A stretch of DNA of 64,000 bases. Source: Actinomycetota bacterium (GTDB taxonomy: Bacteria; Actinomycetota; Actinomycetes; S36-B12; UBA5976). Location: assembly GCA_041192345.1 (NCBI GenBank), contig JBEEND010000001.1:87068-151067 (forward strand), read 5' to 3'. The position numbers and the translations under genes are program-made. Each line of letters opens with the position of its first letter. The first letter of the stretch is position 1. The notes below the pieces were generated by a model. It did not search any database, was not told the DNA's origin, and worked only from the letters and a program-made list of their open reading frames with translations. Below, one piece after another: positions 23,826 to 64,000 of the stretch.

Positions 23826-24419
23826 ATGAAAACTACAACCAGATACTTAATCATTGCCGCAATAATTGCCAGCGTAGTTGCGGTTTTGGTATTTCGCACA
23901 AATTCAAATTTAGATGAAGTTCCGATAACAGCCCCAACGGGTGTTAGCTTACAATCCGGAACTCCGGAGCCATCACCTACAGAAATTTTGGAAGGACCGC
24001 TGTCAGTACCCTCAGGAAAAATTGCAATTTCGGTTGAGCTATCTGATCCAGCTAAAGTTGGGAGTTTCCTGCGGCCAGGTTTGTTCATTACAGTTTTTAA
24101 CACCGTGGCCGCCATTGAAACTGCTGGCGATATCCCAGCTGAAACTGCTGGCGATATTCCAGTTCGAGAAACGCGGGTGCTTCTCACGAAAGTTCAAGTA
24201 TTAGGTATAGCTGGTTACACGGCTGTGGAAGAAGTAGATGCCACAATAACCGAAACCACAATGTTCTTGGTGACATTAGCAGTTACTCAGAATGAAGCGG
24301 AGCGGCTGGTACACGCCATTCAAACTGGAACCCTCTACTTCGGATTATTAAGCGCTGACACTCAAGTCATTCCAGGCGCTGGTGTAAATGACGAAACCAT
24401 ATTCTTAGGAGTAAATTAA
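23826..24419 (+). CDS. cpaB: CpaB/RcpC family Flp pilus assembly protein
   Basis: N-terminal TM anchor (YLIIAAIIASVVAVLVF) and a C-terminal RcpC-like pattern (VLLTKVQVLGIAG...FLVTLAVTQNEAERLVHAIQTGTLYFGL). Confidence 0.7.
   Translation: MKTTTRYLIIAAIIASVVAVLVFRTNSNLDEVPITAPTGVSLQSGTPEPSPTEILEGPLSVPSGKIAISVELSDPAKVGSFLRPGLFITVFNTVAAIETAGDIPAETAGDIPVRETRVLLTKVQVLGIAGYTAVEEVDATITETTMFLVTLAVTQNEAERLVHAIQTGTLYFGLLSADTQVIPGAGVNDETIFLGVN
24117..24164 (+). repeat. 24-bp tandem duplication inside cpaB (ETAGDIPA/ETAGDIPV)
   Basis: GAAACTGCTGGCGATATCCCAGCT is followed directly by GAAACTGCTGGCGATATTCCAGTT. Two mismatches, in frame. Confidence 0.9.
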
Positions 24420-26934: not shown

Positions 26935-28616
26935 AGCTGTGGCTTCGGGCCTTACTAACTTCGCTTGCGCTGTTTGCGAATCCAATAGGTATCACCACTG
27001 CGAATGCAGCTTTGCCAGAAACTGTCATATTGGTTCTAGATGCAAGTGGTTCAATGAAGGGCGCCAAAATTACTTCGGCAATTGAGGCAGGAAAAACTTT
27101 CTTGAGTACGGTGCCTTCCGGTATAAAAGTTGGTTTAGTGACTTTTAACTCGAATGAAGTACTGGTTATTCCACCTACTCTGGACTTCTTGGTCTTGAGT
27201 GATGCCTTGAGTGCGGTAAAACCTGATGGTGGCACCGCTCTTTATGATGGAATTATATCTGCTATTAACTCAATTGAGTCTGGAGCAACCGCGAGAATTG
27301 TAGTGATAACGGATGGTGATGACACTGACAGTAAAGCCATACCAACTGAAGTGGTTACTGCCCTAAGTAATAGCCAAGTTTCCCTCGACGTAGTAACAGT
27401 TGGTGATGCTACCGAAGAAATTGGAATCCTTACAGAATTTGTTCAGGCAGGAAACGGCAGTTTGTTGCAGAATGTCGACGCGGCACAACTAGCAGAGGTA
27501 TTTACCAAAGTTTTGGCAACGCCTACACCAGACGCAGCAACTCCTAACCCAGACGCAGCAACGCCTACACCAGACACAGCAACTCCAGAAGTGAGTGCTC
27601 CTTTAATTGTTGCGCTCACAAATTCTGAGGTAATTAAATTACTCAAGGTAGCGGCTCTCATTCTGATATTAGGGCTGCTTTTAATTGGCATTCGAATATT
27701 GAATCACAGGAGGCAAGTTCTTAAACTTGTTAAAATGCTCGATAAATATACTATGTCTTTCGTACCAACTGCAGAAGCCGTTAAAGCAAAAAAACGTACT
27801 GAATATGTACCTTCAGATCGAAACATTAAACGACCGAAACTCTTAACTTTGGGCCCTAAAAAGTCAACTCTTTTCCCGGGCATTGCCGACAAACTGGATC
27901 GTGCTGGAATTGCAATGAGTTCCGAGCTATGGATAACGTACTGGATCATCGGTGGCCTGTCTATTGCTTTTGGCTTAACAATCATTTTCAGCCCATCAGC
28001 AATTAGTGTGACCTTTTCCTTAATTGCAGTATTTTTTATCCAGAAATCTTTTTTGAAATCTCGCAACGGTGCGCGAAAGCGAGAATTTGAAGAGCGGCTG
28101 GCAGATTTCTTAACAATCATTGCAAGTGGCTTGCGAGCTGGCCTAACCTTTGCTCAAGCAATCGAATCTGCGGTTGGAGATGGATACGGCGAAGTTGAAA
28201 AACAAGTCCGTAGAGCTTTAGCCGAAGTGCAAGTTGGCTCGACGTTAGATGCAGCACTTATGAGAGTGGCCAAAAAGATGGAGAGCGACGACTTAAAATG
28301 GACAATCGCTGCCATTCGAATTCAACGTGAAGTCGGTGGGAACCTGTCTAAGATCCTCGACACTGCATCAGTCACTATCAGAAATCGCGCTGAATTGAAG
28401 CGGGAAATTCGCACTTTGTCAGCGGAGGGCAGATTGTCAGCCTATGTGTTGCTGGCACTGCCTCTGGGAATCTTTGGTTTTTTGAGCCTTAGTCGCCGAG
28501 ATTACGTGGAGATTTTTTGGACAGAAACTGTTGGGATGATAATGCTTGCGGTTTTCGGAATGCTGGTGACGGCTGGTTGGTTCTGGATTCGTTCTGTAGT
28601 GACAGTGAAGGCTTAG
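26931..28616 (+). CDS. tadB: fusion protein: signal/anchor + von Willebrand A domain + Pro/Thr linker + TM + TadB (T2SS-F) platform domain
   Basis: A single uninterrupted 561-aa ORF. MIDAS residues are present: VLVLDASGSM (DxSxS), GGTALYDG (T) and VITDGDD (D). Linker ATPTPDAATPNPDAATPTPDTATPE. TM helix AALILILGLLLIGIRIL. C-terminal half is TadB-like (FLTIIASGLRAGLTFAQAIE...IQREVGGNLSKILD). Confidence 0.8.
   Translation: MKLWLRALLTSLALFANPIGITTANAALPETVILVLDASGSMKGAKITSAIEAGKTFLSTVPSGIKVGLVTFNSNEVLVIPPTLDFLVLSDALSAVKPDGGTALYDGIISAINSIESGATARIVVITDGDDTDSKAIPTEVVTALSNSQVSLDVVTVGDATEEIGILTEFVQAGNGSLLQNVDAAQLAEVFTKVLATPTPDAATPNPDAATPTPDTATPEVSAPLIVALTNSEVIKLLKVAALILILGLLLIGIRILNHRRQVLKLVKMLDKYTMSFVPTAEAVKAKKRTEYVPSDRNIKRPKLLTLGPKKSTLFPGIADKLDRAGIAMSSELWITYWIIGGLSIAFGLTIIFSPSAISVTFSLIAVFFIQKSFLKSRNGARKREFEERLADFLTIIASGLRAGLTFAQAIESAVGDGYGEVEKQVRRALAEVQVGSTLDAALMRVAKKMESDDLKWTIAAIRIQREVGGNLSKILDTASVTIRNRAELKREIRTLSAEGRLSAYVLLALPLGIFGFLSLSRRDYVEIFWTETVGMIMLAVFGMLVTAGWFWIRSVVTVKA
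27516..27590 (+). repeat. 21-bp (heptapeptide ATP[TN]PDA) tandem repeat, about 3.5 copies, in the VWA-TadB linker
   Basis: Units at 27516-27536, 27537-27557 and 27558-27578, plus a partial unit. In frame with few mismatches. Confidence 0.85.
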
Positions 28617-38146: not shown

Positions 38147-39805
38147 TTAATCTGCTTTTGGCGTTCCATACAACAAATCATCCGCATCAACGATCCGGTA
38201 AGAATAACCCTGTTCGGCTAAGAAACGTTGACGATGGGCAGCGAAGTCGGCGTCCACAGTGTCTCTGGTAACGATTGAATAGAAGTGAGCCGAACGCTTG
38301 TCACCCTTTGGGCGAAGGATTCGCCCCAATCGTTGCGCCTCTTCTTGCCGGGAGCCAAAGGTGCCACTGATTTGAATCGCAACACCAGCTTCGGGCAGAT
38401 CAACTGAGAAGTTAGCAACTTTGGAAACTACAAGTACCCGCGTTTCACCCTCACGAAAGGATTGGAATAAGCGTTCGCGTTCTTTGACGGGGGTTGCTCC
38501 GGTAATAGTTGGCACACCGAGAAACTCGCTAATTTCGGCAAGTTGATCTAAGTACTGGCCAATTACCAAGATGTGGTCTTCTGGATGCAGATTTACCAGG
38601 TGCTCCACAACTCGGTTTTTAAATGAAGTTGTGGAAGCAAGTCGGTAACGTTCTTCTGGCTCTGCCATGGCGTAGGCCAACCGCTCGGCATCAGGAAGTG
38701 TCACTCGAACCTCGGCGCAGTCAGCAGGCGCGATGTAGCCCTGGGCTTCAATGTCTTTCCAAGGCGCGTCATATCGCTTTGGACCGATTAGGGAAAACAC
38801 TTCACCTTCCATGCCGTCTTCCCGAACTAAAGTCGCGGTTAAACCAAGGCGACGTCGTGCTTGAATGTCGGCGGTGAAACGAAATACCGGAGCGGGCAAT
38901 AGGTGCACTTCGTCATAAATAATCAATCCCCAGTCGCGGGCATCAAAGAGTTCCATATGTGAAAAGACTCCTTGGCGGCGCGTAGTCATAACTTGGTAAG
39001 TCGCAATTGTTACTGGTCTGATCTCTTTGCGCGCACCAGAGTATTCACCAATTTCTTCTTCTGTGAGTGTGGTGCGCTTCAATAATTCAGCTTTCCATTG
39101 CCGCGCTGAAACGGTGTTAGTTACCAAAATCAAAGTCGTTGCGCCAGCAAGGGCCATGGCAGCAGCGCCAACAATTGTTTTGCCAGCCCCACAAGGTAAG
39201 ACCACAACGCCAGAGCCGCCGTGCCAAAAACCTTCAGCTGCTTCACGCTGGTAAGTGCGCAATTCAAAGGAATTTTCAGCTAACGCAATTGGGTGCGCTT
39301 CACCATCAACGTAACCGGCTAGATCTTCAGCTGGCCAACCAAGTTTTAATAAAACTTGTTTAATGTTTCCGCGCTCACTACCGTGCACCGCAATGGTGTC
39401 TTCATCGATTCGCTTACCAACTAGTGGCTGGATTTTCTTTGAATGCAAAATTTCTTCGAGTACGGTTCGATCATTTGCAGTTAGTACAAGACCATGAACT
39501 GGATGCATATGTAATTGCAATCTTCCGTAGCGAGCCATAGTTTCGGCTATGTCTACCAGCAGTGCATGCGGAACTGGGTAGCGCGAATACTTGATCAAAG
39601 TGTCCACCACAGATTCAGCGTCATGTAAGGCAGCGCGCGCATTCCAAAGCCCAAGTGGGGTGATGCGGTATGTGTGGATATGTTCTGGCGCGCGCTCAAG
39701 CTCGGCAAATGGCGCAATAGCATGACGACATTCAGCGCTTAGTTCATGGTCAATCTCAAGCAATAACGTCTTATCGCTCTGAACGATCAATGGACCTTCA
39801 GTCAT
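38147..39805 (-). CDS. XPB/ERCC3-type DNA repair helicase (SF2)
   Basis: Walker A LPCGAGKT, DEVH box (IYDEVHLL) and helicase C-terminal motifs. N-terminus MTEGPLIVQSDKTLLLE is typical of actinobacterial XPB. Confidence 0.9.
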   Translation of the reverse strand: MTEGPLIVQSDKTLLLEIDHELSAECRHAIAPFAELERAPEHIHTYRITPLGLWNARAALHDAESVVDTLIKYSRYPVPHALLVDIAETMARYGRLQLHMHPVHGLVLTANDRTVLEEILHSKKIQPLVGKRIDEDTIAVHGSERGNIKQVLLKLGWPAEDLAGYVDGEAHPIALAENSFELRTYQREAAEGFWHGGSGVVVLPCGAGKTIVGAAAMALAGATTLILVTNTVSARQWKAELLKRTTLTEEEIGEYSGARKEIRPVTIATYQVMTTRRQGVFSHMELFDARDWGLIIYDEVHLLPAPVFRFTADIQARRRLGLTATLVREDGMEGEVFSLIGPKRYDAPWKDIEAQGYIAPADCAEVRVTLPDAERLAYAMAEPEERYRLASTTSFKNRVVEHLVNLHPEDHILVIGQYLDQLAEISEFLGVPTITGATPVKERERLFQSFREGETRVLVVSKVANFSVDLPEAGVAIQISGTFGSRQEEAQRLGRILRPKGDKRSAHFYSIVTRDTVDADFAAHRQRFLAEQGYSYRIVDADDLLYGTPKAD

Positions 39806-42108
39806 CAGGCACTTCCTTCTTCAGTAAAGTTCTCTTCCAGGGCAGCGCCAGTTATCCGCGCAATCGTAAATGTTCGCACTTCATTGGTTCGTACGTCGAA
39901 AGCAGTTAAGAACCCACCAGTAATTGTGAGCGGTTCAACGATTCGTTCGCTGGTCATGCCACCCTTGTCAGCGTAACCAATCCAAACTTCTTTTCCTTTT
40001 GCTAGGGCGTCATTGAGTAAAGCCAAAGTTTGCGAAGTTGTAGTTCGCGGACCATTCGTTGAAGCAGGTTTGCTGGAGTCCACACGTTCACCGGCGCGAA
40101 GGGCCTTAACGGCAGCAGCGACCAACCGGCTGGATGGACCGGTGACTGTGACTGGAGCAGGATTAACTTTCGTTGCAGTTCGCTTGGTATCTGGACGGTG
40201 TATTAACACTGTGCCCTCGGCGCTTTCGGCAACTGGGGCATAACCGCAGGAGCGCAGTTTTTCAAGGACAATGTCTGCTGGCGAAGAGCTAACCACAATG
40301 CCAGGGGCTAGCTGACGAAACCGCAAAGTTGCTAAGCGACGATCGGCCTGCACAGTTGCAACAAGTTGTTCATCATCACAGCGTAAATAGATAGAGGCAA
40401 CACCAACACGTAGCACGCCATGTTTGCGAGCTACATCCTCAATCAAATAAGTAAGTGGTTGCGGGATTGGGGTGCGGGAAAGTCCAGATAAGAAGTCCAA
40501 AATGTCATGCGCGGATTGGCCTTGATCAAGCGCGCGCCGGATTGAACTCTCAGTAAATCGATAAGTCGTTGCTGCGCCGGTTGATTCCACATCAGCAATC
40601 ACAGCCATAGTTCGGCGTTGGTTTGCTGGCAAGCGACCAGGAGCTAGAGCAGTTAAATCAGCTTGCACGATTACATGATCCACGGGCGCTGGAAGTAAGG
40701 CGCCTAAGACTTTTGTTGGATCTTTTCCTTCAGCGAGTGACTTACCAAATGAGGTAATCGCGCCGAGCGCGGTAACACCCATAGTTGCAGCTTCATCTAG
40801 CACTGCCGAAACTGCAGCAGCGCGAACCATTGAAGAGCGACGCGGGCGATGCCAATCTAAATGGTCCGTCAAAATAGCCGCGCTTGTTGTTGAGCCATCA
40901 GGTAAGCCAAGGTAAATATCGAGTAAGGAAATTCGTAGCGGATTAATAAAGCCGCGTTCAACAGCAGAGGTCAAAGCGTTGGTGCGATCAGCCCCGTCGC
41001 CACCAACTACGTGCGCAGCACGAGCCATATCGCGCCAGGATTGCGCAAGTAAAGTCCAGCGTGATGCATCATCAATGCCAAGCCATCTGTCATAAGCAGC
41101 AGTTGGTAACCAACCATCGGCAGTATCGGCGCCGAGTAATCCCGCTGCGTAAGCAACTTCGATGACTAAGGCTGTTAAGTGTTCAGAGACGCGCAACAAT
41201 TCCTTTGCCGCAGCTAAATCGCGAATCGCAAGTCCGCCGCCACGAAGTTGCGCTGGCGGCTCGATGGACCAAGTTTCCAGCAGAGTTTCTACCAATCGAA
41301 CAAAATCTAAAGCAGCGTGCGCGCCAGTGTCATTGATGCGTTTTACATCTGCGTTACCAAGTACTGGAAAGCCACGATCAGTTTTAATTTCCTTTAACAA
41401 CAAGCCATCGCGAAGTGCAAGTGAAACTTCGCGCGGTACCACAACCGAGTTGTCACTGATTGGCACTATTAGTTCTTGGGCAAGTAGCCATTCCAAAGGT
41501 GATTTAGCATCTTCAATTCGAACTGAACGATTTGCTTGGCGCATTGTTCCGGCAGGTATTGCCCACAAAAGTTGTCCCATAATTTCTCGCACATCATCGG
41601 GACCACTGGCTAATGTTTTGGCGGCAAGATTTTTCTTAGTTCCATAGTCACGAACCTTTCGGCGCGAGTCTGCAAATGAAGCAGCTAAGCCGCACGGATA
41701 GGCACCAAAAGATTCCCGCGCCACACGAACTAAATGCAATTCCTCGTCGTCACCCCAGACAAGTGCGCTAACAAGTAAACGATCGAGTGCAGCGTCAATT
41801 GCTTGCGCGTGATATCCAGTTGCCCCGGATAGTCCATCGTGCACATGAGAGCGCGCTGCTGGATCTGGCAAGGCAGCTAAAACTTCACAAACGCTTAGCT
41901 CAACATGATTAAGCGCATCAAGTGCTGAACTAACACTTGGCGAAGTGGTCGCACGAACTGCTAATTGTCCCAAGTCAGTTGGAACAGGGTGCAACAAATC
42001 TGGGCGTGTTGCGAATAAGACCTCTAATTGGGCATCAGTTCGGTGTCGCAAATCATCAGCTAAAGACCTTGGTCGAAGTTGGATTTCAGCTGTTTCAGAA
42101 GTGCGCAT
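39805..42108 (-). CDS. XPB-associated large conserved protein (helicase-associated; function unknown)
   Basis: 767-aa ORF whose TGA stop shares 1 nt with the XPB ATG (TGATG). The position matches the conserved partner gene upstream of xpb in actinobacteria, recalled from memory. The C-terminal roughly 75 aa resemble a WYL-type fold pattern. Confidence 0.6.
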   Translation of the reverse strand: MRTSETAEIQLRPRSLADDLRHRTDAQLEVLFATRPDLLHPVPTDLGQLAVRATTSPSVSSALDALNHVELSVCEVLAALPDPAARSHVHDGLSGATGYHAQAIDAALDRLLVSALVWGDDEELHLVRVARESFGAYPCGLAASFADSRRKVRDYGTKKNLAAKTLASGPDDVREIMGQLLWAIPAGTMRQANRSVRIEDAKSPLEWLLAQELIVPISDNSVVVPREVSLALRDGLLLKEIKTDRGFPVLGNADVKRINDTGAHAALDFVRLVETLLETWSIEPPAQLRGGGLAIRDLAAAKELLRVSEHLTALVIEVAYAAGLLGADTADGWLPTAAYDRWLGIDDASRWTLLAQSWRDMARAAHVVGGDGADRTNALTSAVERGFINPLRISLLDIYLGLPDGSTTSAAILTDHLDWHRPRRSSMVRAAAVSAVLDEAATMGVTALGAITSFGKSLAEGKDPTKVLGALLPAPVDHVIVQADLTALAPGRLPANQRRTMAVIADVESTGAATTYRFTESSIRRALDQGQSAHDILDFLSGLSRTPIPQPLTYLIEDVARKHGVLRVGVASIYLRCDDEQLVATVQADRRLATLRFRQLAPGIVVSSSPADIVLEKLRSCGYAPVAESAEGTVLIHRPDTKRTATKVNPAPVTVTGPSSRLVAAAVKALRAGERVDSSKPASTNGPRTTTSQTLALLNDALAKGKEVWIGYADKGGMTSERIVEPLTITGGFLTAFDVRTNEVRTFTIARITGAALEENFTEEGSA

Positions 42109-54611: not shown

Positions 54612-54869
54612 ATGGATGCAGTACTAACTAAAGTCACCACGAGTATCAGTGAATTCAAAAAGAATCCAAACGAATTAGTCGCAAAAGCTGGAAATCAAGC
54701 GTTCGCTGTACTTACCAACAACAAACCAACGTTCTATGTCGTGCCGCCGGAACTTTTTGATGAAATCGCCGAAATTCTTTGGGAACGCGAAATCGCGCCG
54801 GTCATTTTGGAGCGCATTAAGAACTATGACAAGGCCATCCCGGTAACACTTGAAGAGCTAATGCTTTGA
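54612..54869 (+). CDS. type II antitoxin, Phd/YefM/StbD family
   Basis: 85 aa. The pattern SISEFKKNPNELVAKAGNQAFAVLTNNKPTFYVVPPELFDEI is typical of Phd/YefM-fold antitoxins. It overlaps the toxin gene by 4 nt. Confidence 0.8.
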   Translation: MDAVLTKVTTSISEFKKNPNELVAKAGNQAFAVLTNNKPTFYVVPPELFDEIAEILWEREIAPVILERIKNYDKAIPVTLEELML

Positions 54870-55165
54870 GTTACAAACTTAAATTTGACGCAAAGGCTCT
54901 CAAGGAATGGGAGGCATTGGATCATGGAATTCGTTCTAGGTGCCTGAAAATACTTGCAAGGAGACTTGAACATCCGCACGTGATCTCAGACTCCCTTTCG
55001 GGAGAACTCGCCGGCTGCTACAAGATCAGGCTGGGTGAATCGGGACATCGACTTGTTTACCTGATTAAAGAAAGTGACCAAGTCCTATTCATTTTGAGCA
55101 TTGGAAAACGTGCCGACAAAGCTGCCTACCGAGCAGCGATCCTTCGAATCCTTGATTCTGAGTAG
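54866..55165 (+). CDS. type II toxin, RelE/StbE (ParE superfamily)
   Basis: 99 aa with a TTG start. (M)SYKLKFDAKALKEWEALD and GCYKIRLGESGHRLVY...ILSIGKR match the RelE/StbE pattern. Confidence 0.8.
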   Translation: MSYKLKFDAKALKEWEALDHGIRSRCLKILARRLEHPHVISDSLSGELAGCYKIRLGESGHRLVYLIKESDQVLFILSIGKRADKAAYRAAILRILDSE

Positions 55166-55354: not shown

Positions 55355-55535
55355 CACCCGGAACCGATCCTTGCAGGGCGCCAAGTCTCACCACCTGCCA
55401 AGGGAAATAAATCTCTGGTGAGTGTGGGGGAACCACAGGTAAGTGGTCTGAATCAGACCTTGGGGTTAAGTCAGGAAACTGACCGGCTGCCTTCCCAGAG
55501 CCGCACCCGACAGCTCACCCCACCGGCGCTGGGAG
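55355..55535 (+). promoter_or_regulatory. ydaO/yuaA-class (cyclic-di-AMP) riboswitch in the leader of the NlpC/P60 hydrolase gene
   Basis: Three conserved cores are present: GGGGGAACCAC (55426-55436), TTGGGGTTAAGTC (55460-55472) and CCGCACCCGACAGCTCACC (55501-55519). They closely match the ydaO cores as I recall them from characterised RNAs. CTCACCA/TGGTGAG pairing occurs at 55387-55393 and 55427-55433. The element ends at the GGGAG RBS (55531-55535). Confidence 0.8.
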
Positions 55536-55539
55536 TCAA

Positions 55540-57591
55540 ATGTCTAGTGCTAAGTCGCGCGGGTCAATCCAGCGCGTAATCTCACTGCCAAAGGGTCTTC
55601 TGGACCGCTTTGAAGCGCGCCTTGACTCTAGCCTGGATGCTGGTTTTAACCGTGCAGACGCCCTGCTAGAGCGTCAAATCCACTCTGTTAGGTATTCGCA
55701 ACGCAGCCTGACCAGTGGCCTAGCCAACACAGCCAGCGCCGCGGACCGAGTTTTAGACTCCCGCATTCCCCAATCTGCATCCTCAGCGCAGGCCGCCCAA
55801 AGATTTAGTCGCGGACTTGCCAGCATGGTGCAAGCTACCGACTCGGCCCTTGACAAAAGAATTTCCGATCAGGACTCCACAAAGCTCAAAACCTCAACGC
55901 AGCGCTTCGTTTCCACCGTCAAGAAACTTGAAGTCAGAGTCGATGCCAAGTTAACCAGCAATCTGCAGGCAGTTGACCGCGCAGTTTCCGTTTGCACTAA
56001 CGCTGCTGGTGGGTCATTGGCAGCCAGTGCGCGACTAGTGAAGCGGTTGGAAAACCAGACCCAGCGCAGTTTCCATCGCGCTGATCAGCGAATCACTAAT
56101 GCCTCAAATCGCATTACTCATATCCGGACTAAAACTGCAGGGCTGATTTACCGCAACACGGCCCGGCTAGATCAAGGAATCGAAACCAGTTTTAATCGAG
56201 TCGATACTGGCCTTAGCCAAGCAATCAAGCACGGTGTGCTTGCGACTAATTCCGCCGTCACTGCTATGCAGGCCACATCCCAATCTCTTGATGTTGCCAT
56301 TGCTAATTCAGTTTCCAGTTTTGACGCCAAGGTAACTCGTAGCGTTAACCAAGTTCAGGTCGCCACCGCAACAACACGAAACTTAGTTAATGCAAAAACC
56401 CTGGCTTTTGAACGTGTTATGGAACTTGGCATCTCGCGCATTGATTCAGGCATAGATCACGGAATCACATCTAGTCGCACTGCTAATCAATCCCTCGTCG
56501 CGCGAGCAAGCAGCGCTGACCTGCATTTGACGTCCCGCCTAGCTCGTATAGATCGCAGACTAAGTGGCGCTATCGCCAAGGTCGCCCTGACTTCTTCGCA
56601 AATCTCCGGTTATGCCACGCGCAATCTCACCAGCGCCGATACTCGTTTAACAACAGGTCTAAAAACTACCGATGCCGGCATCGATACCGCAGTAACAGCA
56701 ATCGTTTCGGTAGCATCCGCAACAGCGAACTTTGCCACACGAAGTGCGCAATTAACTGATGCCACCTTGTTGCGCGGTGTGACAAAGGTTGATCAGTGCG
56801 TTGAAGTTTTTGCGCGCCAAAGCAACAAGAAATCAAGTCATGTTGGCACACGCGTAGCGCCAGCACCCGCGTGGGTTGCGGCGGGCTTAGCCCTAGTCTT
56901 GGGAACTTTAGGAACGGTAACCAGCACATCGGTAATCACGGCTGAATCCGCTCCGATTGAAATTGACAACTCCGCACAGAGCGAAACCATGGCTGCAAAG
57001 ACGGTTGTTTCGCAGTACATGACGGTGCGCGAATCCTTTGCTGCTTTGCAAGCATCCCGCTCTCGCACCATTTCGACTTTAGAAACCGAAATTGCCCAAG
57101 CCCAGGTCAGAGCGCAAGAAACCACGATTGATGGAAATGCCGTTATTAACATTGCGAGCAAGTATGCCGGTGCTTCCTATGCTCGCGGTGGCACAACACC
57201 AAAGGGATTCGACTGCTCAGGTTTTACCACATACGTCTTCAGGCAAGTTGGTGTGTCACTTCCTCGCACATCTGGCGAACAAGCCGCTTGGGCAGATCGA
57301 GTTGCTGACTCAGATCGTCAAGTTGGCGACTTAATGTTCTGGTCAGATCGTGGCGGTGTGCATCACGTAGCTATCTATGCTGGCGATGGCCTGATGTGGG
57401 ATTCCCCGCGTCCAGGTCGCAGAGTTGGCAAGATCAGTATTTGGGGCGATCCGTTTTACGGTCGTGTCCCAGCCGCTGCAGTTAACAGCGATGCCATCGC
57501 AGAGGTTGCCGACAAGACAGCTGAACTAGAAGAAGTAATAGCCGATGTGCCACGACTTGAAATTACGGTTGACCCAACACCCGTTGACTAA
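55540..57591 (+). CDS. bitopic NlpC/P60 peptidoglycan hydrolase with long repetitive N-terminal domain
   Basis: The C-terminal NlpC/P60 domain has the catalytic Cys context GFDCSGFTTYVF and His context GGVHHVAIYAG. A single TM (WVAAGLALVLGTLGTVTSTSVI) lies at about aa 445-466, preceded by basic residues. The N-terminal roughly 440 aa have no signal peptide and carry degenerate [FL]xR[AVI]DxxL/I repeats. Confidence 0.8.
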   Translation: MSSAKSRGSIQRVISLPKGLLDRFEARLDSSLDAGFNRADALLERQIHSVRYSQRSLTSGLANTASAADRVLDSRIPQSASSAQAAQRFSRGLASMVQATDSALDKRISDQDSTKLKTSTQRFVSTVKKLEVRVDAKLTSNLQAVDRAVSVCTNAAGGSLAASARLVKRLENQTQRSFHRADQRITNASNRITHIRTKTAGLIYRNTARLDQGIETSFNRVDTGLSQAIKHGVLATNSAVTAMQATSQSLDVAIANSVSSFDAKVTRSVNQVQVATATTRNLVNAKTLAFERVMELGISRIDSGIDHGITSSRTANQSLVARASSADLHLTSRLARIDRRLSGAIAKVALTSSQISGYATRNLTSADTRLTTGLKTTDAGIDTAVTAIVSVASATANFATRSAQLTDATLLRGVTKVDQCVEVFARQSNKKSSHVGTRVAPAPAWVAAGLALVLGTLGTVTSTSVITAESAPIEIDNSAQSETMAAKTVVSQYMTVRESFAALQASRSRTISTLETEIAQAQVRAQETTIDGNAVINIASKYAGASYARGGTTPKGFDCSGFTTYVFRQVGVSLPRTSGEQAAWADRVADSDRQVGDLMFWSDRGGVHHVAIYAGDGLMWDSPRPGRRVGKISIWGDPFYGRVPAAAVNSDAIAEVADKTAELEEVIADVPRLEITVDPTPVD

Positions 57592-57689: not shown

Positions 57690-58667
57690 CTATGTTTGGG
57701 ATTCCAGTTTCAAGTCATGCTCGACCATCATGGTCACCAACTCTTCAAAAGAAGTCTCTGGTACCCAACCTAGGTTCGCCTTTGCTTTTGCGGGATCACC
57801 AACAAGTGATGAGATATCAGCAGGTCGAAGCAGGTCATCAGAACTACTTACGTGATCCTCCCAATTTGAAATTCCAGCAACTGAAAACGCCAAACGCACT
57901 AAATCTCGTACCGAGTGAGTTTTACCCGTTGCAATCACATAATCATCTGCCACTTCTTGCTGCAACATCAACCACATAGCTTTTACGTAATCACCGGCAA
58001 ACCCCCAATCGCGCATGGCGTCCAGGTTTCCCATCACGATTGTTTTTTGTTTCCCAGTTGCAATGCGCGCTACTGATTGCGAAACTTTTCGAGTCACAAA
58101 CTCAGGGGTACGCCGAGGAGATTCATGGTTAAACAAAATTCCTGAACTCGCATGAAAACCATATGACTCTCGGTAATTAATCGTCATGTGGTGCCCAAAG
58201 ACTTTTGCTACACCATATGGGCTGCGCGGCCATAACAAAGTGGTTTCGCGCTGTGGGGTCTCTTGCGCCTTGCCGAACATCTCAGAGCTCGACGCTTGAT
58301 AAAAGCGAGGACGCCCTTGCGCATCTGGGTGACTAATTCGAATCGCCTCAAGTAAGTTCAATACCCCAATCGCAGTAACCTGGGCGGTTTGCTGAGCTTG
58401 TTCCCAGGAAAATGCCACATGGGATTTTGCGCCTAAGTTATAAACCTCATCAGGGGCAGCAATTTCTAGCGCTCGAAACAAGGTAGTGGTATCTGTTAGA
58501 TCCCCATTGATCAATTGAAGGCCAGGTACTTCAGTGGTTAGTTGAAGTTCGCGCTGTGGATCTACGGAATGGACAAGCCCAAATACTTTGTAGCCTTTTG
58601 CCAGCAACAACTCAGATAGATACAAACCATCTTGGCCGCTAACACCAGCAATAAGGGCAGAACGCAT
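57690..58667 (-). CDS. gmd: GDP-mannose 4,6-dehydratase
   Basis: N-terminus ALIAGVSGQDGLYLSELLLAKGY plus SSSEMFG and YGVAK catalytic motifs. Confidence 0.9.
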   Translation of the reverse strand: MRSALIAGVSGQDGLYLSELLLAKGYKVFGLVHSVDPQRELQLTTEVPGLQLINGDLTDTTTLFRALEIAAPDEVYNLGAKSHVAFSWEQAQQTAQVTAIGVLNLLEAIRISHPDAQGRPRFYQASSSEMFGKAQETPQRETTLLWPRSPYGVAKVFGHHMTINYRESYGFHASSGILFNHESPRRTPEFVTRKVSQSVARIATGKQKTIVMGNLDAMRDWGFAGDYVKAMWLMLQQEVADDYVIATGKTHSVRDLVRLAFSVAGISNWEDHVSSSDDLLRPADISSLVGDPAKAKANLGWVPETSFEELVTMMVEHDLKLESQT

Positions 58668-58702
58668 AAGTACTAAAGTATCGGACTTCTAGCTCGATCT
58701 TG

Positions 58703-59677
58703 TTACTTATGACTTACTTGCCAAGCATTCCATGCGCTTTGGACCATATCACGAAGTTGAAAACGACTTTGCCAACCAAGATTTTCTTTAGCCTTAGAAA
58801 CATTCGCAACCAACGCAGCTGGGTCGCCTGCGCGCCTTTCCACAATCTCAGGAACAAGTTTGATCCCAGTCACATCTTGGATCGTAGATAAAACTTCAAA
58901 GACACTAGCTCCAACCCCGGTGCCGATGTTTATTGCCTCAAATCCTGGTTGCATGGATTCAACTAAATCCATCGCAGCAACGTGAGATTCCGCTAAGTCC
59001 TGCACATGCACATAGTCACGAATACACGAACCGTCAGGAGTGCTGTAGTCATTTCCAAAAACTTTTGGGGCTATTCCAGAATCTATTGCTTCAAAAACTA
59101 TCGGCACCAAGTTAAATGCAAACTGGTCACCAAGTTCAGGCTGGCCAGCACCTGCCACATTGAAGTAGCGCAGCGCAGCAACTTTGAAACCATCAGAAAC
59201 TGACAGTGCCTTAGAAATAATTTCGCCTTCAAGCTTGGTCAAACCGTAAGGGTTAATTGGTGAACAGTTTTCGAATTCTGAAATAGTTTGGCCAGGCTCT
59301 ATTTTTGGCGTGCCATAAACCGCAGCAGAAGAACTAAAAACAAGATTCAGTACGCCGTGCTGCTTCATTGAATCAACAAGATTTTGAAACCCACCAACAT
59401 TTTCTTGCCAGTAATAATCTGGGCGCTCAACTGATTCCCCGACCTTTTTCTTGGCGGCTAAATGAATAACACCTTTAAAATCATGCTTTGCAAAAACCGA
59501 TTCAACTGCGCCGGCGTCGGTTAACGTGATTCTCTCGACCTCGATGCCCGAAGGAAGTCGAGCCGCAATCCCAGATGACAAGTCATCGAGCACAACTAGC
59601 TCACGTCCTGATTTCAAAGTTTCCGCAACCACGTGCGCACCGATGTATCCGGCGCCGCCAGTAATGAGCCAAGTCAT
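58703..59677 (-). CDS. galE: UDP-glucose 4-epimerase-like NAD-dependent epimerase
   Basis: ITGGAGYIGAHV Rossmann motif, SSSAAVYG and YGLTK (YxxxK). Confidence 0.8.
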   Translation of the reverse strand: MTWLITGGAGYIGAHVVAETLKSGRELVVLDDLSSGIAARLPSGIEVERITLTDAGAVESVFAKHDFKGVIHLAAKKKVGESVERPDYYWQENVGGFQNLVDSMKQHGVLNLVFSSSAAVYGTPKIEPGQTISEFENCSPINPYGLTKLEGEIISKALSVSDGFKVAALRYFNVAGAGQPELGDQFAFNLVPIVFEAIDSGIAPKVFGNDYSTPDGSCIRDYVHVQDLAESHVAAMDLVESMQPGFEAINIGTGVGASVFEVLSTIQDVTGIKLVPEIVERRAGDPAALVANVSKAKENLGWQSRFQLRDMVQSAWNAWQVSHK

Positions 59678-59750
59678 AACTTAAGTCTCGCAGAAATTAT
59701 CTCGAATCCCTCATGCATTTAAGGGATGACGAAGGGCAATCGACCAATAG

Positions 59751-60770
59751 CTATTTCTTTACGGAGCGAAATAGCCTTCTCAAGAATTTATCTCCTGTAC
59801 GCAAGAATCTTGTGGTCGCCCACGATTTAGATTTGAGCACTCGTTCCAGCCCTAAAAGGACATTGTCACGTTCGGCAACGGCGCTGTCACGTTCGGCAAC
59901 GGCGCTGTCACGTTCGGCAACGGCGCTGTCACGTTCGGCAACGGCGCTGTCACGTTCGGCAACGGCGCTGTCTTCAAAGAAAATAACCGGGCGTTCGACA
60001 AAATCCCAACGATTCGCGCTTCGGCAGTGATCTATGTAAACAGTAAAAAGTCGTTCGGAAATAAACCCGCTCCAACGGTATTGAAACCCCTTGGTAGGTA
60101 GCGAATCTGAAATGTCATCGAGAGCCTTTAATACTGGAAAAAGAAGCGCCACCCACTCGTTGTAGAAATCTGGGCTTCCGATCCACATGTTCCAGGGGTA
60201 AAGAAATTGGGTATTTTTCAAGTCCGATTTTGAATCAATAATTCCAAATGTCCCTTCAACACACTTATCAAATGCTAAACAAGCCACATCAAGTGCTCGC
60301 TCAAGTGGAGCATGGCAAACAATAAAATGTTCGTACACGCTAGATTTGAGATCCATTGGCTTGGGTACGACTATTTTATCTACGTAGCTGCACAAGAATT
60401 TAGCTTCCTTACCTGCACATGAGTACCGATTTTTTAAATCTTGTGTGTAATTTTGATCTTTAGGCTCATTCGGATTTAGGGAAAAAATTCTTCGGTAGTG
60501 AGTAATGCCAACTTGTTTCTTGTTTTCGAAAAATTGCCTTGCCCCAAGCAGGATAATGTTTTCCGAAAGTGATTCAGGATGGGCCACTAATCCTGAATCA
60601 CTTTCGACATAATGCTGGTAACCGTGGACTAATCCACTACTTAGGACTGCACAAATTTCGAGATAAGGAGGTTCGAGTTCTCTATAAATCGGTTCTAAAT
60701 GTGAGGCAACAAGAACTAAGGTGTCAACTTCATGCAGGTCTTCCATTTCACCGTCGTTCTCTAATTGCAT
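59751..60770 (-). CDS. DUF4422-like putative glycosyltransferase-associated protein with (DSAVAER)x5 repeat
   Basis: The ITHYRRIF motif and overall pattern resemble DUF4422, recalled from memory. The C-terminal region carries five identical heptapeptides, followed by a basic tail containing SKSWATTRFLR. The alternative start at ATG 60746 removes the 23-nt overlap with the upstream gene. Confidence 0.45.
   Translation of the reverse strand: MQLENDGEMEDLHEVDTLVLVASHLEPIYRELEPPYLEICAVLSSGLVHGYQHYVESDSGLVAHPESLSENIILLGARQFFENKKQVGITHYRRIFSLNPNEPKDQNYTQDLKNRYSCAGKEAKFLCSYVDKIVVPKPMDLKSSVYEHFIVCHAPLERALDVACLAFDKCVEGTFGIIDSKSDLKNTQFLYPWNMWIGSPDFYNEWVALLFPVLKALDDISDSLPTKGFQYRWSGFISERLFTVYIDHCRSANRWDFVERPVIFFEDSAVAERDSAVAERDSAVAERDSAVAERDSAVAERDNVLLGLERVLKSKSWATTRFLRTGDKFLRRLFRSVKK
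59864..59972. repeat. perfect 21-bp tandem repeat, 5 copies plus 4-nt partial
   Basis: TGTCACGTTCGGCAACGGCGC occurs at 59864, 59885, 59906, 59927 and 59948 with no mismatches. It is in frame on the minus strand and encodes DSAVAER. Confidence 0.97.
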
Positions 60771-63138
60771 TTATAAGCTTTTTAATGAATCTTTTTTTAT
60801 GAAGATTTTCAACGCGAATTCTAGTGAACTCTGCGGCACGCTCCATCGTAAATTCTGAGAGGACATCGATGCGGGCTTGATCACCTATGCGTGATCGAAG
60901 ACTCTCATCCCTACTTAGTTCTCGCATGGCGTTAGCTGCAAACTTAATGTCTGGTTGCGCCCAACGTGAATCTTCTGGGTAAGGAAATGCGTCAGCACCA
61001 ACGGGAACAAGTTCAAATGGCACCAAAATTGAATTTTCTGGCTTCATGAAATCCATGTTTCCTGAGTATCCAGTAGCAATTACCGGCCTACCTAAGGCCA
61101 TTGCCTCAGCTAGCGTGAGGCCGTACCCCTCGCTTCTATGAAGGGAAATATAAGTCTGACATTCGTTTAGGAGACTGTGTAGTTGTTCTCGAGAAAGATA
61201 TGAATCAATGATTACTATATCGTTTCGCTCGGAGGCAGTATTCCTGAGCTGATCTTGTTGAGATTTGTTCCTGTGGCCATTTACAGTCTTTATAACTAAC
61301 TTCGGCCCAGACTCCTCGGGAAAAGCCAAAACATGTGCAGCAATCAGGTCAAGTGGATTCTTGCGCTTGAACACACTGAAGTAATCGAACATAAACAAGT
61401 TAAATTCATCTTGTGCACCAATTCCAATTGCACTGCGATCAAGTTTTTCTGTGATGTTTGGAGCAACAATCGGTCCCGGAAAAACGAGTACCGGCTTCCT
61501 GGTCTGTGCCTTAATCGCGTCACGAACGAAGCTCGAGATTGCCCAGATTTCATCGACGAAGTCAAATACCGGAAAAAGATTTTTTGGAAAACTTTCAATT
61601 TCCCAAGCCCACACACCAACAAATTTGGAGTGGGATCTAAGTTCAGGTGGGAGTTGGGCTAACCAAGCAGAAAATTGATCTGCATTTACTGATCCAATTG
61701 TGACTGGATACAAAGCTTTTGAGTCTGTGAACTCAAATTCCTCATCCTGCCTTGATTCGGTTTGGCGATTGACCAGAGTAGTAACAGGAAGGCCAGAAGA
61801 TATCGCTGCCCGTGCGACTAATCTGCCAAATTGTCCAACTCCAAATTCCCCTTTGAAGTAACCAGCAACGTTCACACCTAAATCTTTTGTAAGCAATTTC
61901 TTATTGACGCTATCTAAGGTGTGATCATAGATTTTAATTGTTGATTCGTTGATAACTTTTTCATCGACACCAAATTGATGTGCCCATTTCAGCATTCCAG
62001 GAGCGTCAGTGCCAGTAGCTAGTGGAAAGGCTAGTTGTAAATCAGACCTTCCCTTCCATACGTCAAAGAGAGATACGTTCAATCTCCCAGATTCAGGAAT
62101 CTGACGATTTAGCCAATCTAAAATTTCGTTGGTGGATCCGGATGGAAGAGGAGGAAGATTTAAGTCCCCTTGTAAAGCAGCCATCAAGTCCGTGCGGTAG
62201 CGCCTGCGAATTTCGGGCGTCAGTCTTATGCCATCTATGAAGTTTAAATATCCATATTCGAGTGCCTTATTTGTTCCCCAGCCAAATTCAGATGCTCGCA
62301 GCCCATAACGGTCAGCAATATCTTTAACTAACGGTTCATCGGACATAACTACGCGTGGCGTGTCTGCCACGTGGCTACTTAGTAACCATGGCTTATTCGG
62401 CTTGTATCCGCTGAAATGAAAGAAACGAAGTGGATTTTTGTTTACGTAATACCCAGAATCTACTTTTGTAATGTCGCGTTCATGCAAATTCCAGTAGGCA
62501 ACGTTGTAGCCGTAATCGCGGATAACAGAAAATGAGTAATAACTAGGAACAAAATCTATCCAGCGCTGATCAGTGAACAAATTGTTTTCGACATCTGAAA
62601 TACAGTCATATTTCAATCGTTCGTTCCACCAGGTCAAGAACTCATAAGTTTGTGATGAGTTCTTTATAGCGATAAAGCCCAAATTGAAAATGCCCGACGA
62701 CATAATGTCGTAATCAGAGGGAGATAGTCCATCTCTTGGAATCTCATGCAGGGTATGCGGCGTCAAAGCAATGTTTGCTGATTCTAAATGCTGGGGAATC
62801 TCAATTAGTTCGGAAAATACTTCGATGTCAGGGTCTAGGTAAATGGCTATATCTGAGCCGGTATCAAGTAAGTACTTTAACCCCAGAGGCTTTAGTGCAG
62901 TAGAAAGTTCGGTGACGTCGTAATAAATTGCCATTCTCATAAAAACTTCCGGCGCAAGGTCAAGATCACTTGGTTTGATAATGGTAATTTCGGGGCCTAA
63001 ATCAATCGATATTCCGGGAACATCACCGTCCACTAGTAGTAAATAAAACTTTGATTCTGGATGAAATTTAAGAAAAGAGCTAGCCAAGATTTTTGCAAAA
63101 GGCAGGTAATTGGCCGCACAAATTGTCAATCCATTCAT
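60748..63138 (-). CDS. two-domain glycosyltransferase (N-terminal GT-A/GT8-like nucleotide-sugar transferase + C-terminal GT4/GT-B)
   Basis: The N-terminus ICAANYLPFAKILASSFLKFHPESKFYLLLVDGD fits the GT-A-like family. The C-terminal EGYGLTLAEAMALGRPVIATGYSGNMDF carries the EX7E motif of GT4 enzymes. 796 aa. Confidence 0.7.
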   Translation of the reverse strand: MNGLTICAANYLPFAKILASSFLKFHPESKFYLLLVDGDVPGISIDLGPEITIIKPSDLDLAPEVFMRMAIYYDVTELSTALKPLGLKYLLDTGSDIAIYLDPDIEVFSELIEIPQHLESANIALTPHTLHEIPRDGLSPSDYDIMSSGIFNLGFIAIKNSSQTYEFLTWWNERLKYDCISDVENNLFTDQRWIDFVPSYYSFSVIRDYGYNVAYWNLHERDITKVDSGYYVNKNPLRFFHFSGYKPNKPWLLSSHVADTPRVVMSDEPLVKDIADRYGLRASEFGWGTNKALEYGYLNFIDGIRLTPEIRRRYRTDLMAALQGDLNLPPLPSGSTNEILDWLNRQIPESGRLNVSLFDVWKGRSDLQLAFPLATGTDAPGMLKWAHQFGVDEKVINESTIKIYDHTLDSVNKKLLTKDLGVNVAGYFKGEFGVGQFGRLVARAAISSGLPVTTLVNRQTESRQDEEFEFTDSKALYPVTIGSVNADQFSAWLAQLPPELRSHSKFVGVWAWEIESFPKNLFPVFDFVDEIWAISSFVRDAIKAQTRKPVLVFPGPIVAPNITEKLDRSAIGIGAQDEFNLFMFDYFSVFKRKNPLDLIAAHVLAFPEESGPKLVIKTVNGHRNKSQQDQLRNTASERNDIVIIDSYLSREQLHSLLNECQTYISLHRSEGYGLTLAEAMALGRPVIATGYSGNMDFMKPENSILVPFELVPVGADAFPYPEDSRWAQPDIKFAANAMRELSRDESLRSRIGDQARIDVLSEFTMERAAEFTRIRVENLHKKRFIKKLINAIRERR

Positions 63139-63202
63139 CGCAAACTCCCATCTAAACTCACATGCGCACTTCCATTGTATTTCTGAGGTAGATCTTTAGT
63201 TT

Positions 63203-64000
63203 TCAAAGATTTTTATCCATCATTGCCTCGTCACACTCTGCGCGAGCAATTCTTCGGGAAATTTCAGAAATTAGTTTTCCAGCTTTGGACTTAGTCATTT
63301 GCTTCGTTTCGATTTGCGGATCGATCACTTTGCTGTTGGAAGTTGTAAGTCCTTGAAGAAGTGAGTTCATTACTTCGGCGACACCAATTTCAGAAACATT
63401 CCTGCGGTCACTTTCAAAGTATTCAAATGGTGCTTGCGGACCAGTGATAATTTCAAAGGCCGGGAAGTAAGAAACATTTTCTATCTGATTAGAAACTTGT
63501 TCGGCAACCACGCGCAGTACGGATTTACTATAAGTACTAGCAAGCAATACGTGAGATTGGGTAGCTGTAGCAACAAGTGGCACTGGGGAAACGGTAATGA
63601 TAAATCGCACTTTTGGATTTGATTCTCGAAGATGCTCAATAAATTTTGCAAGATCCTCAGTTATTTCTTCAACTGAAAAATTCTTAAATTCGTGCTTTTC
63701 CTCATCAAAAATTCCACTGATAGTTCCTGGGCAGGCTGGAAAGACAGAGCCATCCACTTTTGATTGCCACGCTTCAGTCAAACCCAAAGTGAACACAAAT
63801 ACAGTAGCTTTGTGAAATGCCGTGAGCACAGCCTTTAAATGCGAGGCTTTTAATAAATCAAATTCTGCGTCAGATTCGGCAGGGTAGGCCAGACCTGGAC
63901 GAAAAGGGTCAATAACCATTCCGTCTATGTGCCAGCGATCTTCGGCGGGAACTCTTACCCCCAAAGCTTGCTCGTATAGTTGGCGTAAATGTCTTGCCGT
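63203..64000 (-). CDS. GSCFA-family-like protein, 5' end beyond window
   Basis: The frame stays open upstream of the track ATG (63964) to the window edge. The TLGLTEAW...ITVSPVPL pattern resembles GSCFA/SGNH-like proteins, recalled from memory. The N-terminal signature lies outside the window. Confidence 0.4.
   Translation of the reverse strand, partial: TARHLRQLYEQALGVRVPAEDRWHIDGMVIDPFRPGLAYPAESDAEFDLLKASHLKAVLTAFHKATVFVFTLGLTEAWQSKVDGSVFPACPGTISGIFDEEKHEFKNFSVEEITEDLAKFIEHLRESNPKVRFIITVSPVPLVATATQSHVLLASTYSKSVLRVVAEQVSNQIENVSYFPAFEIITGPQAPFEYFESDRRNVSEIGVAEVMNSLLQGLTTSNSKVIDPQIETKQMTKSKAGKLISEISRRIARAECDEAMMDKNL

Follow-up and report, generated by a model that had tools for sequence, protein, structure and literature searches.

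A gene at positions 55540 to 57591 (+) of a 64,000-nucleotide stretch of DNA from an Actinomycetota bacterium (assembly GCA_041192345.1, contig JBEEND010000001.1, positions 87,068 to 151,067; the whole stretch is called the window here) codes for an NlpC/P60 hydrolase of 683 residues. Its first 438 residues form a real protein domain under purifying selection, built of repeats and placed ahead of the only hydrophobic segment of the protein. The reading that we favour, and to which we give somewhat better than an even chance, is that of a riboswitch-controlled hydrolase with its N terminus inside and its C terminus outside the cell (N-in/C-out), carrying a cytoplasmic coiled-coil rod that would cluster or position the enzyme. 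The straight cytoplasmic coiled-coil rod on an NlpC/P60 hydrolase is the new part of this reading; the riboswitch part is known. The gene structure, the riboswitch, the repeat architecture, the prediction of helix, the orthology with shorter forms of the enzyme and the purifying selection were all supported computationally. The product was identical to P0001, a hypothetical protein of "MAG Actinomycetota bacterium RI895_135", and its sequence points to a peptidoglycan hydrolase of the D,L-endopeptidase type from freshwater Candidatus Nanopelagicales.

A sequence-only reading of the window had described a riboswitch extending to the ribosome-binding site of this gene, a single hydrophobic segment and a C-terminal NlpC/P60 domain, and this description proved correct. 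A search against Rfam gave only one match across the 64-kb window, a cyclic di-AMP (c-di-AMP) riboswitch aptamer of the ydaO/kimA type (RF00379) at positions 55386 to 55542 (+). The match was complete (model positions 1-134 of 134) and scored 55.1 bits (gathering score, 38; E value, 3.4e-11), and its 3' end ran into the Shine-Dalgarno sequence and the ATG. The closing helix of the aptamer stopped 3 nt 5' of the Shine-Dalgarno sequence GGGAG, which is visible in the sequence at positions 55531 to 55535 (+), 4 nt upstream of the ATG. The riboswitch terminated at the start codon in 7 of the 7 orthologous loci of this long form that had enough upstream DNA (L001-L006 and L009), and the same riboswitch ended at the start codon in three loci of the short form described below (L010, L012 and L013). 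The Shine-Dalgarno context, GGCGCTGGGAG-N4-ATG (CTGGGAG), was unchanged across 8 loci. Among the orthologous loci compared, no conserved internal start codon with a Shine-Dalgarno sequence was found near or before the hydrophobic segment. Translation from 55540, for which the sequence-only reading had argued from the position of the riboswitch, is therefore supported by the orthologues as well.

A promoter scan found no sigma-70-like promoter, and a terminator scan found no convincing terminator after the aptamer or after the gene. The lack of a terminator behind the aptamer fits translational control. In Corynebacterium glutamicum, the c-di-AMP riboswitch of nlpC (cg2402) represses translation (PMC9960051), and by analogy the binding of c-di-AMP at the aptamer of the window most likely blocks translation initiation. 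The two genes are alike in having RF00379 directly upstream of an NlpC/P60 gene, no obvious terminator and an aptamer whose 3' end lies beside the ribosome-binding site. They differ in that no cytoplasmic N-terminal domain is described for the C. glutamicum protein in that work (PMC9960051), whereas the window protein has a signal-less repeat domain of 438 residues. A passage of the same report that cites Nelson et al. 2013 states that riboswitches precede cell-wall genes in Actinobacteria generally (PMC9960051). Control of actinobacterial NlpC/P60 genes by a c-di-AMP riboswitch is already known and is not novel (PMC9960051).

The N-terminal domain (residues 1 to 438; 55540 to 56853, +) is without a signal peptide and was predicted to be all-helical and cytoplasmic. 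Residues 1 to 440 contained no Trp, 3 Tyr, 2 Pro, 2 Cys and 10 Phe. The earlier description of this part as having almost no aromatic, Pro or Cys residues thus holds for Trp, Tyr, Pro and Cys but not for Phe. The charged residues of the same part were 42 Arg, 18 Lys, 26 Asp and 8 Glu, giving a net charge of +26, while Gly and Glu accounted for 4.5% and 1.8% of the domain, respectively.

The sequence-only reading had also noticed degenerate copies of a short helical motif in this domain, and these turned out to be far above chance. An aliphatic residue was found at position +3 of 23 of the 26 Asp residues, against 6.1 ± 2.2 expected (0 of 2,000 shuffles reached the observed value), and the strict motif [FLIVM]xR[AVIFT]Dxx[LIVF] occurred 5 times against 0.05 expected. 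When segments of the domain were compared with each other, profile against profile, they matched with probabilities of up to 94% (E value of about 1e-7). The spacing between the Asp residues alternated between 11 and 29 residues, which marks out about 11 units with a length of 40 residues (36, 32 and 30 in the variants). These units, into which the earlier motif copies can now be placed, occupy residues 25 to 434 (55612 to 56841, +), and each contains two hDxxh motifs 11 residues apart. The consensus of the unit was h-D-x2-h-x3-h-x-R-h-D-x2-h-x3-h, followed by a less conserved half. A unit of 40 residues equals 11 helical turns and subdivides into 11+11+11+7 residues. At the DNA level, Tandem Repeats Finder and a seed search detected only one chance-level match in the gene, of 21 nt in two copies. 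Since the repeats are seen only in the protein and have left no trace in the DNA, the duplications must be old.

Several lines of evidence showed that the domain is maintained as protein. The frame stayed open in every homologue, down to an identity of 34-37% in the N-terminal domain. Differences in length between homologues amounted to 40 residues (at three separate sites) and 120 residues, that is, to whole units with the phase kept, and a few smaller insertions or deletions were found within the N-terminal 110 residues. The pairwise ratio of nonsynonymous to synonymous substitution rates (dN/dS) was 0.12-0.26 for the N-terminal domain and 0.06-0.14 for the rest of the protein, both figures being approximate with dS near saturation.

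No significant match to a named domain was obtained for the N-terminal part in Pfam (searched with the single sequence and with 7 members), NCBIfam, PHROGs or a profile search of the PDB. A profile of the N-terminal domain by itself, a check that had been proposed together with the motif, was then used to search 1.84 billion representative proteins (50%-identity clusters). Only 12 relatives were found, and all of them had the same architecture or were fragments of it, so that the domain is always fused to this hydrolase. The profile recovered nothing but its own family. As the sequence-only reading had suspected, the repeat has no name, and it is specific to this lineage; the family is of small depth, about 20-30 sequences. 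The nine loci retrieved from GTDB species genomes all belonged to "Candidatus Nanopelagicales" or to unclassified Actinomycetota metagenome-assembled genomes, several of which came from lakes.

Two shorter orthologues, from metagenome contigs of related actinobacteria, indicated how the long form arose. P0061 (265 residues; L012, 2091-3058) and P0062 (246 residues; L010, 2855-3741) are each encoded behind the riboswitch and begin with an N-terminal signal peptide. Their order is a basic stretch of about 12-25 residues, the hydrophobic segment, the same helix, the NlpC/P60 domain and the C-terminal helix. They share with the long form the riboswitch, the signal or anchor segment and the ectodomain, and differ from it in that the whole repeat domain is absent. 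The surroundings of P0061 were syntenic as well, with a photolyase gene (product 68% identical), the riboswitch, the hydrolase gene and an LTD-PASTA gene in this order; the LTD-PASTA gene was also found downstream of the long-form gene in other Nanopelagicales. Because the homologous segment stands at the N terminus of the short forms, the long form would have arisen by an insert between the start codon and the export signal. Across the long-form loci, the proteins of the syntenic genes upstream (aminotransferase, PNP oxidase, MFS transporter and photolyase) were 79-97% identical (83-96% for most pairs), and the hydrolase was just 42-64% identical.

The topology of the protein depends on residues 439 to 468, approximately (56854 to 56943, +). 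This single hydrophobic segment, a signal anchor or an internal signal peptide, was the only hydrophobic stretch in the protein, with a peak Kyte-Doolittle mean over 19 residues of 1.74. The basic stretch RQSNKKSSHVGTR directly preceded it, and an acidic stretch followed. Over the family, the 20 residues on the N-terminal side carried a charge of -1 to +3 and the 20 residues on the C-terminal side one of 0 to -3; the window protein showed a clear bias across the segment, the most distant homologues a weak one. Since the sole segment lies between the two domains, the membrane should separate them, provided that the protein is inserted at all. The repeat domain precedes the only export signal and should therefore remain in the cytoplasm. 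On these features of the sequence, we predict an N-in/C-out protein with a cytoplasmic N-terminal domain and the hydrolase outside. The same orientation had been deduced earlier from the basic N-terminal flank, and it fits what was found, namely, one segment, a basic N-terminal and an acidic C-terminal flank, and short orthologues in which the homologous segment serves as N-terminal signal peptide.

The segment was among the best-conserved parts of the protein. L450, V453 to G458, T461 and S464 were invariant, and small residues formed a stripe of A448, A451, G455, G458 and position 462 (Gly in most homologues, Ser here). The invariant positions suggest helix-helix packing. Two other identities of the segment were considered and rejected. 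The consensus of a twin-arginine translocation (Tat) signal was absent, the residues before the segment being RR in some homologues and TR in the window protein. Release of the Gly/Ala/Ser/Thr-rich segment from the membrane in the manner of a signal-arrest-release (SAR) endolysin would require the N-terminal domain to follow across the membrane, which a domain of 438 residues could not do.

We then considered the shape of the N-terminal domain. Its hydrophobicity showed a single sharp period of 3.63-3.64 residues (z 31-38), and the peak was at 3.615-3.635 (z 22-38) in all full-length homologues. The helical phase was steady within about ±25 degrees over residues 111 to 438, with one shift near residues 100-115. 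The undistorted alpha-helix turns once every 3.63 residues, and coiled coils of the hendecad type are almost without supercoil (PMC9858780). The period of the domain, which for 40 residues in 11 turns is 3.636, is that of the undistorted helix, and the hydrophobic seam should therefore be straight, without supercoil. On a helical wheel, the seam was narrow, with 51-55% Leu, Ile, Val, Phe or Met and 2-7% charged residues within ±50 degrees. At +80 to +116 degrees lay a tight stripe of Asp and Glu, with a resultant length of 0.67-0.88, and a stripe of Arg lay at -110 to -160 degrees. This pattern of stripes was checked in six homologues, with identities down to about 35%.

An AlphaFold2 model of residues 282 to 438, built with 14 aligned sequences, consisted of one unbroken helix of 149 residues (fragment residues 4-152), with a mean predicted local distance difference test score (pLDDT) of 85.8. 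This model, together with the presence of only 2 Pro and 4.5% Gly, makes a long continuous helix more likely than a bundle of hairpins. A single-alpha-helix (SAH) domain of the Glu/Lys-rich type was rejected, with Glu at just 1.8%; not being of this type, the helix must owe its stability to oligomerisation or to a surface. The acidic and basic stripes flanking a narrow seam suit a parallel, in-register coiled coil, in which acid faces base on both sides, and an antiparallel pair would bring like charges together, so that the parallel arrangement is favoured. We therefore infer a parallel, in-register, homo-oligomeric coiled coil. At 0.15 nm per residue and with helix throughout, its length would be about 49 nm over residues 111 to 438 and about 65 nm over the whole domain. 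Cell volumes of <0.1 cubic micrometre and, for Planktophila, a curved-rod shape have been reported (PMC12817590). A rod of about 50-65 nm is sizeable relative to such small cells.

The closest parallels to such a rod were found in Streptomyces, where Scy and FilP are hendecad-rich coiled-coil proteins of the cytoskeleton with almost no supercoil (PMC9858780). The predicted rod resembles them as an actinobacterial cytoplasmic rod with non-heptad repeats, a period of about 3.63-3.64 and many small residues in the seam. The unit here has 40 residues (11+11+11+7), whereas Walshaw et al. are said to have described in 2010 a repeat of 51 residues in Scy (51/14 = 3.64). The window protein differs further in its conserved Asp/Arg stripes and in its covalent link to a membrane anchor and an extracellular enzyme. 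Neither homology to Scy or FilP nor a DivIVA-like N-terminal motif was detected in Pfam or in the profile search of the 1.84 billion representatives.

Taken together, the favoured reading would run as follows. The ancestral gene would have consisted of the riboswitch, a signal peptide, the conserved helix, the NlpC/P60 domain and the C-terminal helix, a short form that related lineages kept. In the lineage of the window, an insert of about 270-440 residues would have come to lie behind the start codon and ahead of the export signal, and it would have been enlarged by duplication of the 40-residue (11-turn) unit. The c-di-AMP riboswitch at the ribosome-binding site would throttle translation and so set the amount of the enzyme. 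The hydrophobic segment would span the membrane, with the insert in the cytoplasm and the hydrolase outside. The extension would be one very long amphipathic helix, assembled into a parallel, in-register, homo-oligomeric rod of about 50-65 nm, and every chain would be anchored by its small-residue-striped transmembrane helix, which is consistent with a parallel rod. From the inside, the rod would oligomerise or cluster the enzyme and tether or position it, and wall cleavage would thereby be confined to the site of the rod. In this scheme the topology, the oligomeric state and the anchoring or positioning function are inferred; for a role in positioning, we point, as indirect evidence, to the purifying selection in a streamlined genome, the constant fusion to the enzyme and the conserved surface stripes.

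A bolder version, which we put forward tentatively and think unlikely, takes the rod to be a membrane-anchored cytoskeletal or "ruler" element with a strict surface period of 40 residues (about 6 nm) that lays down a line or patch of endopeptidase outside. Such rods would bundle together or follow a periodic cytoplasmic polymer, as tropomyosin does on actin.

Several observations weigh against the favoured reading. An exact repeat of 40 residues alone yields an 11th-harmonic peak at 3.636, so that the phase coherence by itself is no proof of a continuous helix; we hold to the continuous helix because the units of 36, 32 and 30 residues keep the phase, Pro and Gly are scarce and the AlphaFold2 fragment is helical. 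In the full-length AlphaFold2 monomer, the N-terminal part was all-helical and the pLDDT was <50 over residues 1 to 484; the tertiary arrangement of this low-confidence part was not used for conclusions or for fold comparison. The net charge of the N-terminal domain was positive in most homologues and ranged from 0 to +26, and it is thus not conserved. Given this range, binding of DNA or of anionic lipids through a net positive charge was rejected as a conserved property. No ftsEX, steAB or divIVA-like gene was found among the 18 flanking open reading frames (38 kb to the window end). The sequence-only reading had suggested "inside-out regulation" of wall cleavage, for example through docking to the divisome or cytoskeleton; this stays a suggestion, and no partner gene was linked to the hydrolase in the neighbourhood. 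Finally, the hydrophobic segment is moderately hydrophobic, with 48-74% Gly, Ala, Ser or Thr, and a conserved [VIL]-x-A ending at A468 is a possible signal-peptidase site. Cleavage there would part the rod from the enzyme.

Such a cleavage is what the main rival proposes, a reading that we regard as possible but on the whole doubtful. The protein would be a precursor with a cleavable internal signal peptide. Signal peptidase I would free an ectodomain of about 215 residues after Ala468 and leave behind the N-terminal 468 residues, a cytoplasmic coiled-coil protein anchored by its tail. The role of the fusion would then be limited to delivering the hydrolase across the membrane where the rod sits or to giving the two products in a 1:1 ratio. 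The layout of the segment agrees with the n-h-c order of signal peptides: the n-region is basic, the h-core (WVAAGLALVLGTLG) has about 14 residues, and the c-region is polar, rich in Ser and Thr, and closes with a conserved [VIL]-[TN]-A before E, N, S or A. The segment is marginally hydrophobic (peak Kyte-Doolittle mean, 1.74), and its position is homologous to that of the N-terminal signal peptides of P0061 (…GLIA|QS) and P0062 (…VHA|WS). However, nine positions of the segment are invariant though the N-terminal domains are only 37% identical, which exceeds ordinary signal-peptide conservation, and the stripe of small residues is typical of packed transmembrane helices.

Another reading takes the N-terminal domain for an amphipathic helix instead of a coiled coil, resting on the membrane from the cytoplasmic side in the manner of the 11-mer repeats found in apolipoproteins, alpha-synuclein and perilipins. 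There it would detect or shape the curvature, tension or lipid packing of the membrane, in a way coupled to the hydrolase. The period of 3.63 is that of an unsupercoiled helix, as a flat surface contact needs; the domain is tethered beside the membrane, most homologues have a net positive charge, and the AlphaFold2 monomer is a single helix without tertiary packing. The details of the helical surface speak against such a contact. The narrow apolar face covers about 90-120 degrees and contains much Ala, Ser and Thr; Trp is absent and Tyr is scarce. The acidic stripe at +80 to +116 degrees flanks the seam, which is unfavourable on an anionic bacterial membrane, and the basic residues are on one side only (-110 to -160 degrees), not at both polar-apolar interfaces. 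Furthermore, the net charge is 0 in the full-length protein P0022 and in the fragment P0025. A helix lying in the plane of the membrane is quite unlikely in our view.

Hydrolases of related type raise the question of whether the repeat domain could itself be outside the cell. In secreted hydrolases such as RipA/RipC, PcsB, CwlO and SagA, a coiled coil N-terminal to the NlpC/P60 or CHAP domain is the rule (PMC9897464, PMC10694151). Division hydrolases regulated by a coiled coil include RipA/Cg1735 with SteA-SteB (Cg1603-Cg1604), RipC-FtsEX, PcsB-FtsEX and CwlO-FtsEX-SweCD (PMC9897464, PMC10694151, PMC6705773, PMC6705760), and in these systems cytoplasmic information controls wall cleavage via a membrane-spanning element (PMC9897464, PMC10694151, PMC6705773). 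The window protein resembles RipA, RipC, PcsB and CwlO in having a helix, here predicted to be extracellular, ahead of the NlpC/P60 (or CHAP) catalytic domain. In those proteins the coiled coil is extracellular and the transmembrane and cytoplasmic parts are separate proteins, whereas in the window protein the large coiled coil is part of the same chain (in cis) and is predicted to be cytoplasmic. Only a helical part of about 50-65 residues (residues 477 to 540) lies between its membrane segment and the catalytic domain, unlike the large coiled coils of RipA, RipC, CwlO and PcsB. An exported N-terminal domain would be a wall-spanning or regulatory stalk comparable to the coiled coils at the N termini of RipA/RipC, PcsB, CwlO and SagA, and it would need an unrecognised export route. 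Besides the rule for secreted hydrolases, the faster evolution of the family relative to the neighbouring genes would agree with it. Nevertheless, this location is very improbable, since the protein has neither an N-terminal signal peptide nor a hydrophobic stretch ahead of residue 439, the segment sits between the two domains so that both cannot be outside, and the same segment stands at the N terminus of the short orthologues as the export signal for their catalytic part. Moreover, Sec is not known to move 438 residues with a net charge of up to +26 across the membrane in the absence of a signal.

It is hardly credible that the long open reading frame is an annotation artefact with a real product of about 260 residues, a secreted hydrolase of exactly the architecture seen in the short orthologues, and 1.3 kb upstream that are non-functional as protein, because the riboswitch and the invariant Shine-Dalgarno sequence stand at the equivalent of ATG 55540 in all loci with no conserved start or Shine-Dalgarno sequence before the segment, the 1.3-kb frame is open in all homologues (34-37% identity in the N-terminal domain), insertions and deletions come in whole 40-residue (120-nt) units, dN/dS is 0.12-0.26 and the helical periodicity is conserved (z 22-38).

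In the part of the protein that follows the segment, and that is predicted to be extracellular, a juxtamembrane motif, PxEIDNS, is followed by a highly conserved long helix with invariant columns (residues 477 to 525) and a second helix (residues 532 to 540), the whole at positions 56944 to 57159 (+). Both helices had AlphaFold2 pLDDT values of 65-82 and are present in the short orthologues too. The NlpC/P60 (C40) catalytic domain (residues 544 to 628; 57169 to 57423, +) matched Pfam PF00877 with 79.2 bits against a cut-off of 23 (E value, 2.7e-22). Cys559 (57214-57216, in the motif DCSG), His609 and Asp621 were invariant in 18 family members; Asp621 is what we take to be the third catalytic residue, by the analogy of its spacing with that in RipA (H432 to E444). 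Sequence matches in the PDB were to the catalytic domains of SagA, RipA, RipC and LytE. A Foldseek search of the PDB with the full-length model matched the catalytic domain only, to NlpC/P60 structures, with TM-scores to the target of 0.70-0.78 for the best isolated catalytic-domain structures. The scores against the NCBIfam models of RipA (53.8 against a cut-off of 625) and RipC (62 against 425) stayed far below the cut-offs, the match being to the catalytic domain and little else. A C-terminal amphipathic helix (residues 645 to 668; 57472 to 57543, +; AlphaFold2 helices 645-648 and 650-668) was kept across the family and in P0061. The PxEIDNS motif, the long helix and the C-terminal helix (residues 469 to 540 and 645 to 668) were about as conserved as the catalytic domain. 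By analogy with the coiled coil of RipA/Cg1735 (PMC9897464), the ecto-helix and the C-terminal helix may gate the active site.

The neighbours of the gene in the window (an MFS transporter, a photolyase, a Phd/ParE pair and sugar-nucleotide enzymes) were uninformative on its function. The pair, a Phd/YefM antitoxin and a ParE toxin (54612-55165, +), separates the photolyase gene from the riboswitch. The orthologous loci L001-L009 do not have it, which makes it a strain-specific insertion. Downstream, a convergent LTD(+PASTA) gene of about 660-680 residues and then a gene for a DUF11/cadherin-like/Big_9 surface protein were found elsewhere in Nanopelagicales (L002 and L009, 8035-12557). In the window, positions 57690 to 63964 (-) are occupied instead by genes for a GDP-mannose 4,6-dehydratase, an epimerase, a DUF4422 protein, a GT4 glycosyltransferase and a GSCFA protein, and the hydrolase gene forms the edge of this variable glycan island. 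A perfect tandem repeat of 21 nt in 5.2 copies (59864-59972; Tandem Repeats Finder score, 218; 100% matches) was present inside the open reading frame at 59751-60770 (-), where it encodes DSAVAER five times near the C terminus of the glycosyltransferase-like DUF4422 protein. Identity among the copies points to a recent expansion or to a surface-glycan gene of variable length. Tandem repeats of in-frame length were also found in open reading frames of the central cluster, at 27516-27583 and 24116-24162 (21 nt in 3.2 copies and 24 nt in 2 copies, respectively). At 38147-42108 (-), a gene for an XPB/ERCC3-like helicase of 552 residues adjoins one for a protein of 767 residues with Helicase_C_3 and WYL domains. 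This pairing is unconnected to the hydrolase and resembles actinobacterial XPB-Bax1-like or defence-associated modules.

Spatial control of wall-cutting enzymes from the inside usually involves multi-protein relays, such as FtsEX with RipC, PcsB or CwlO and SteAB with RipA. Here, the enzyme itself appears to bear a cytoplasmic rod of 50-65 nm, at the cost of about 1.3 kb of extra coding sequence. A literature search for the architecture found no description of a straight cytoplasmic coiled-coil rod fused in cis, via the ancestral export signal, to an extracellular endopeptidase. That 1.3 kb is kept under purifying selection in a freshwater bacterial lineage that ranks among the most streamlined and most abundant argues for an important role. 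If the segment were cleaved, it would be an unusual signal peptide, placed behind more than 400 residues. The domain is a clean natural case of an unsupercoiled coiled coil, with a 40-residue (11-turn) repeat and acidic and basic stripes, and is thus relevant to coiled-coil structure and design. If the rod positions or clusters the hydrolase, the protein would be a minimal, single-chain system for the inside-out control of cleavage. Should the rod even act as a ruler, one polypeptide would combine something like crescentin and a hydrolase in a device that patterns cleavage, and hence cell separation or the curved-rod shape, in ultra-small cells.

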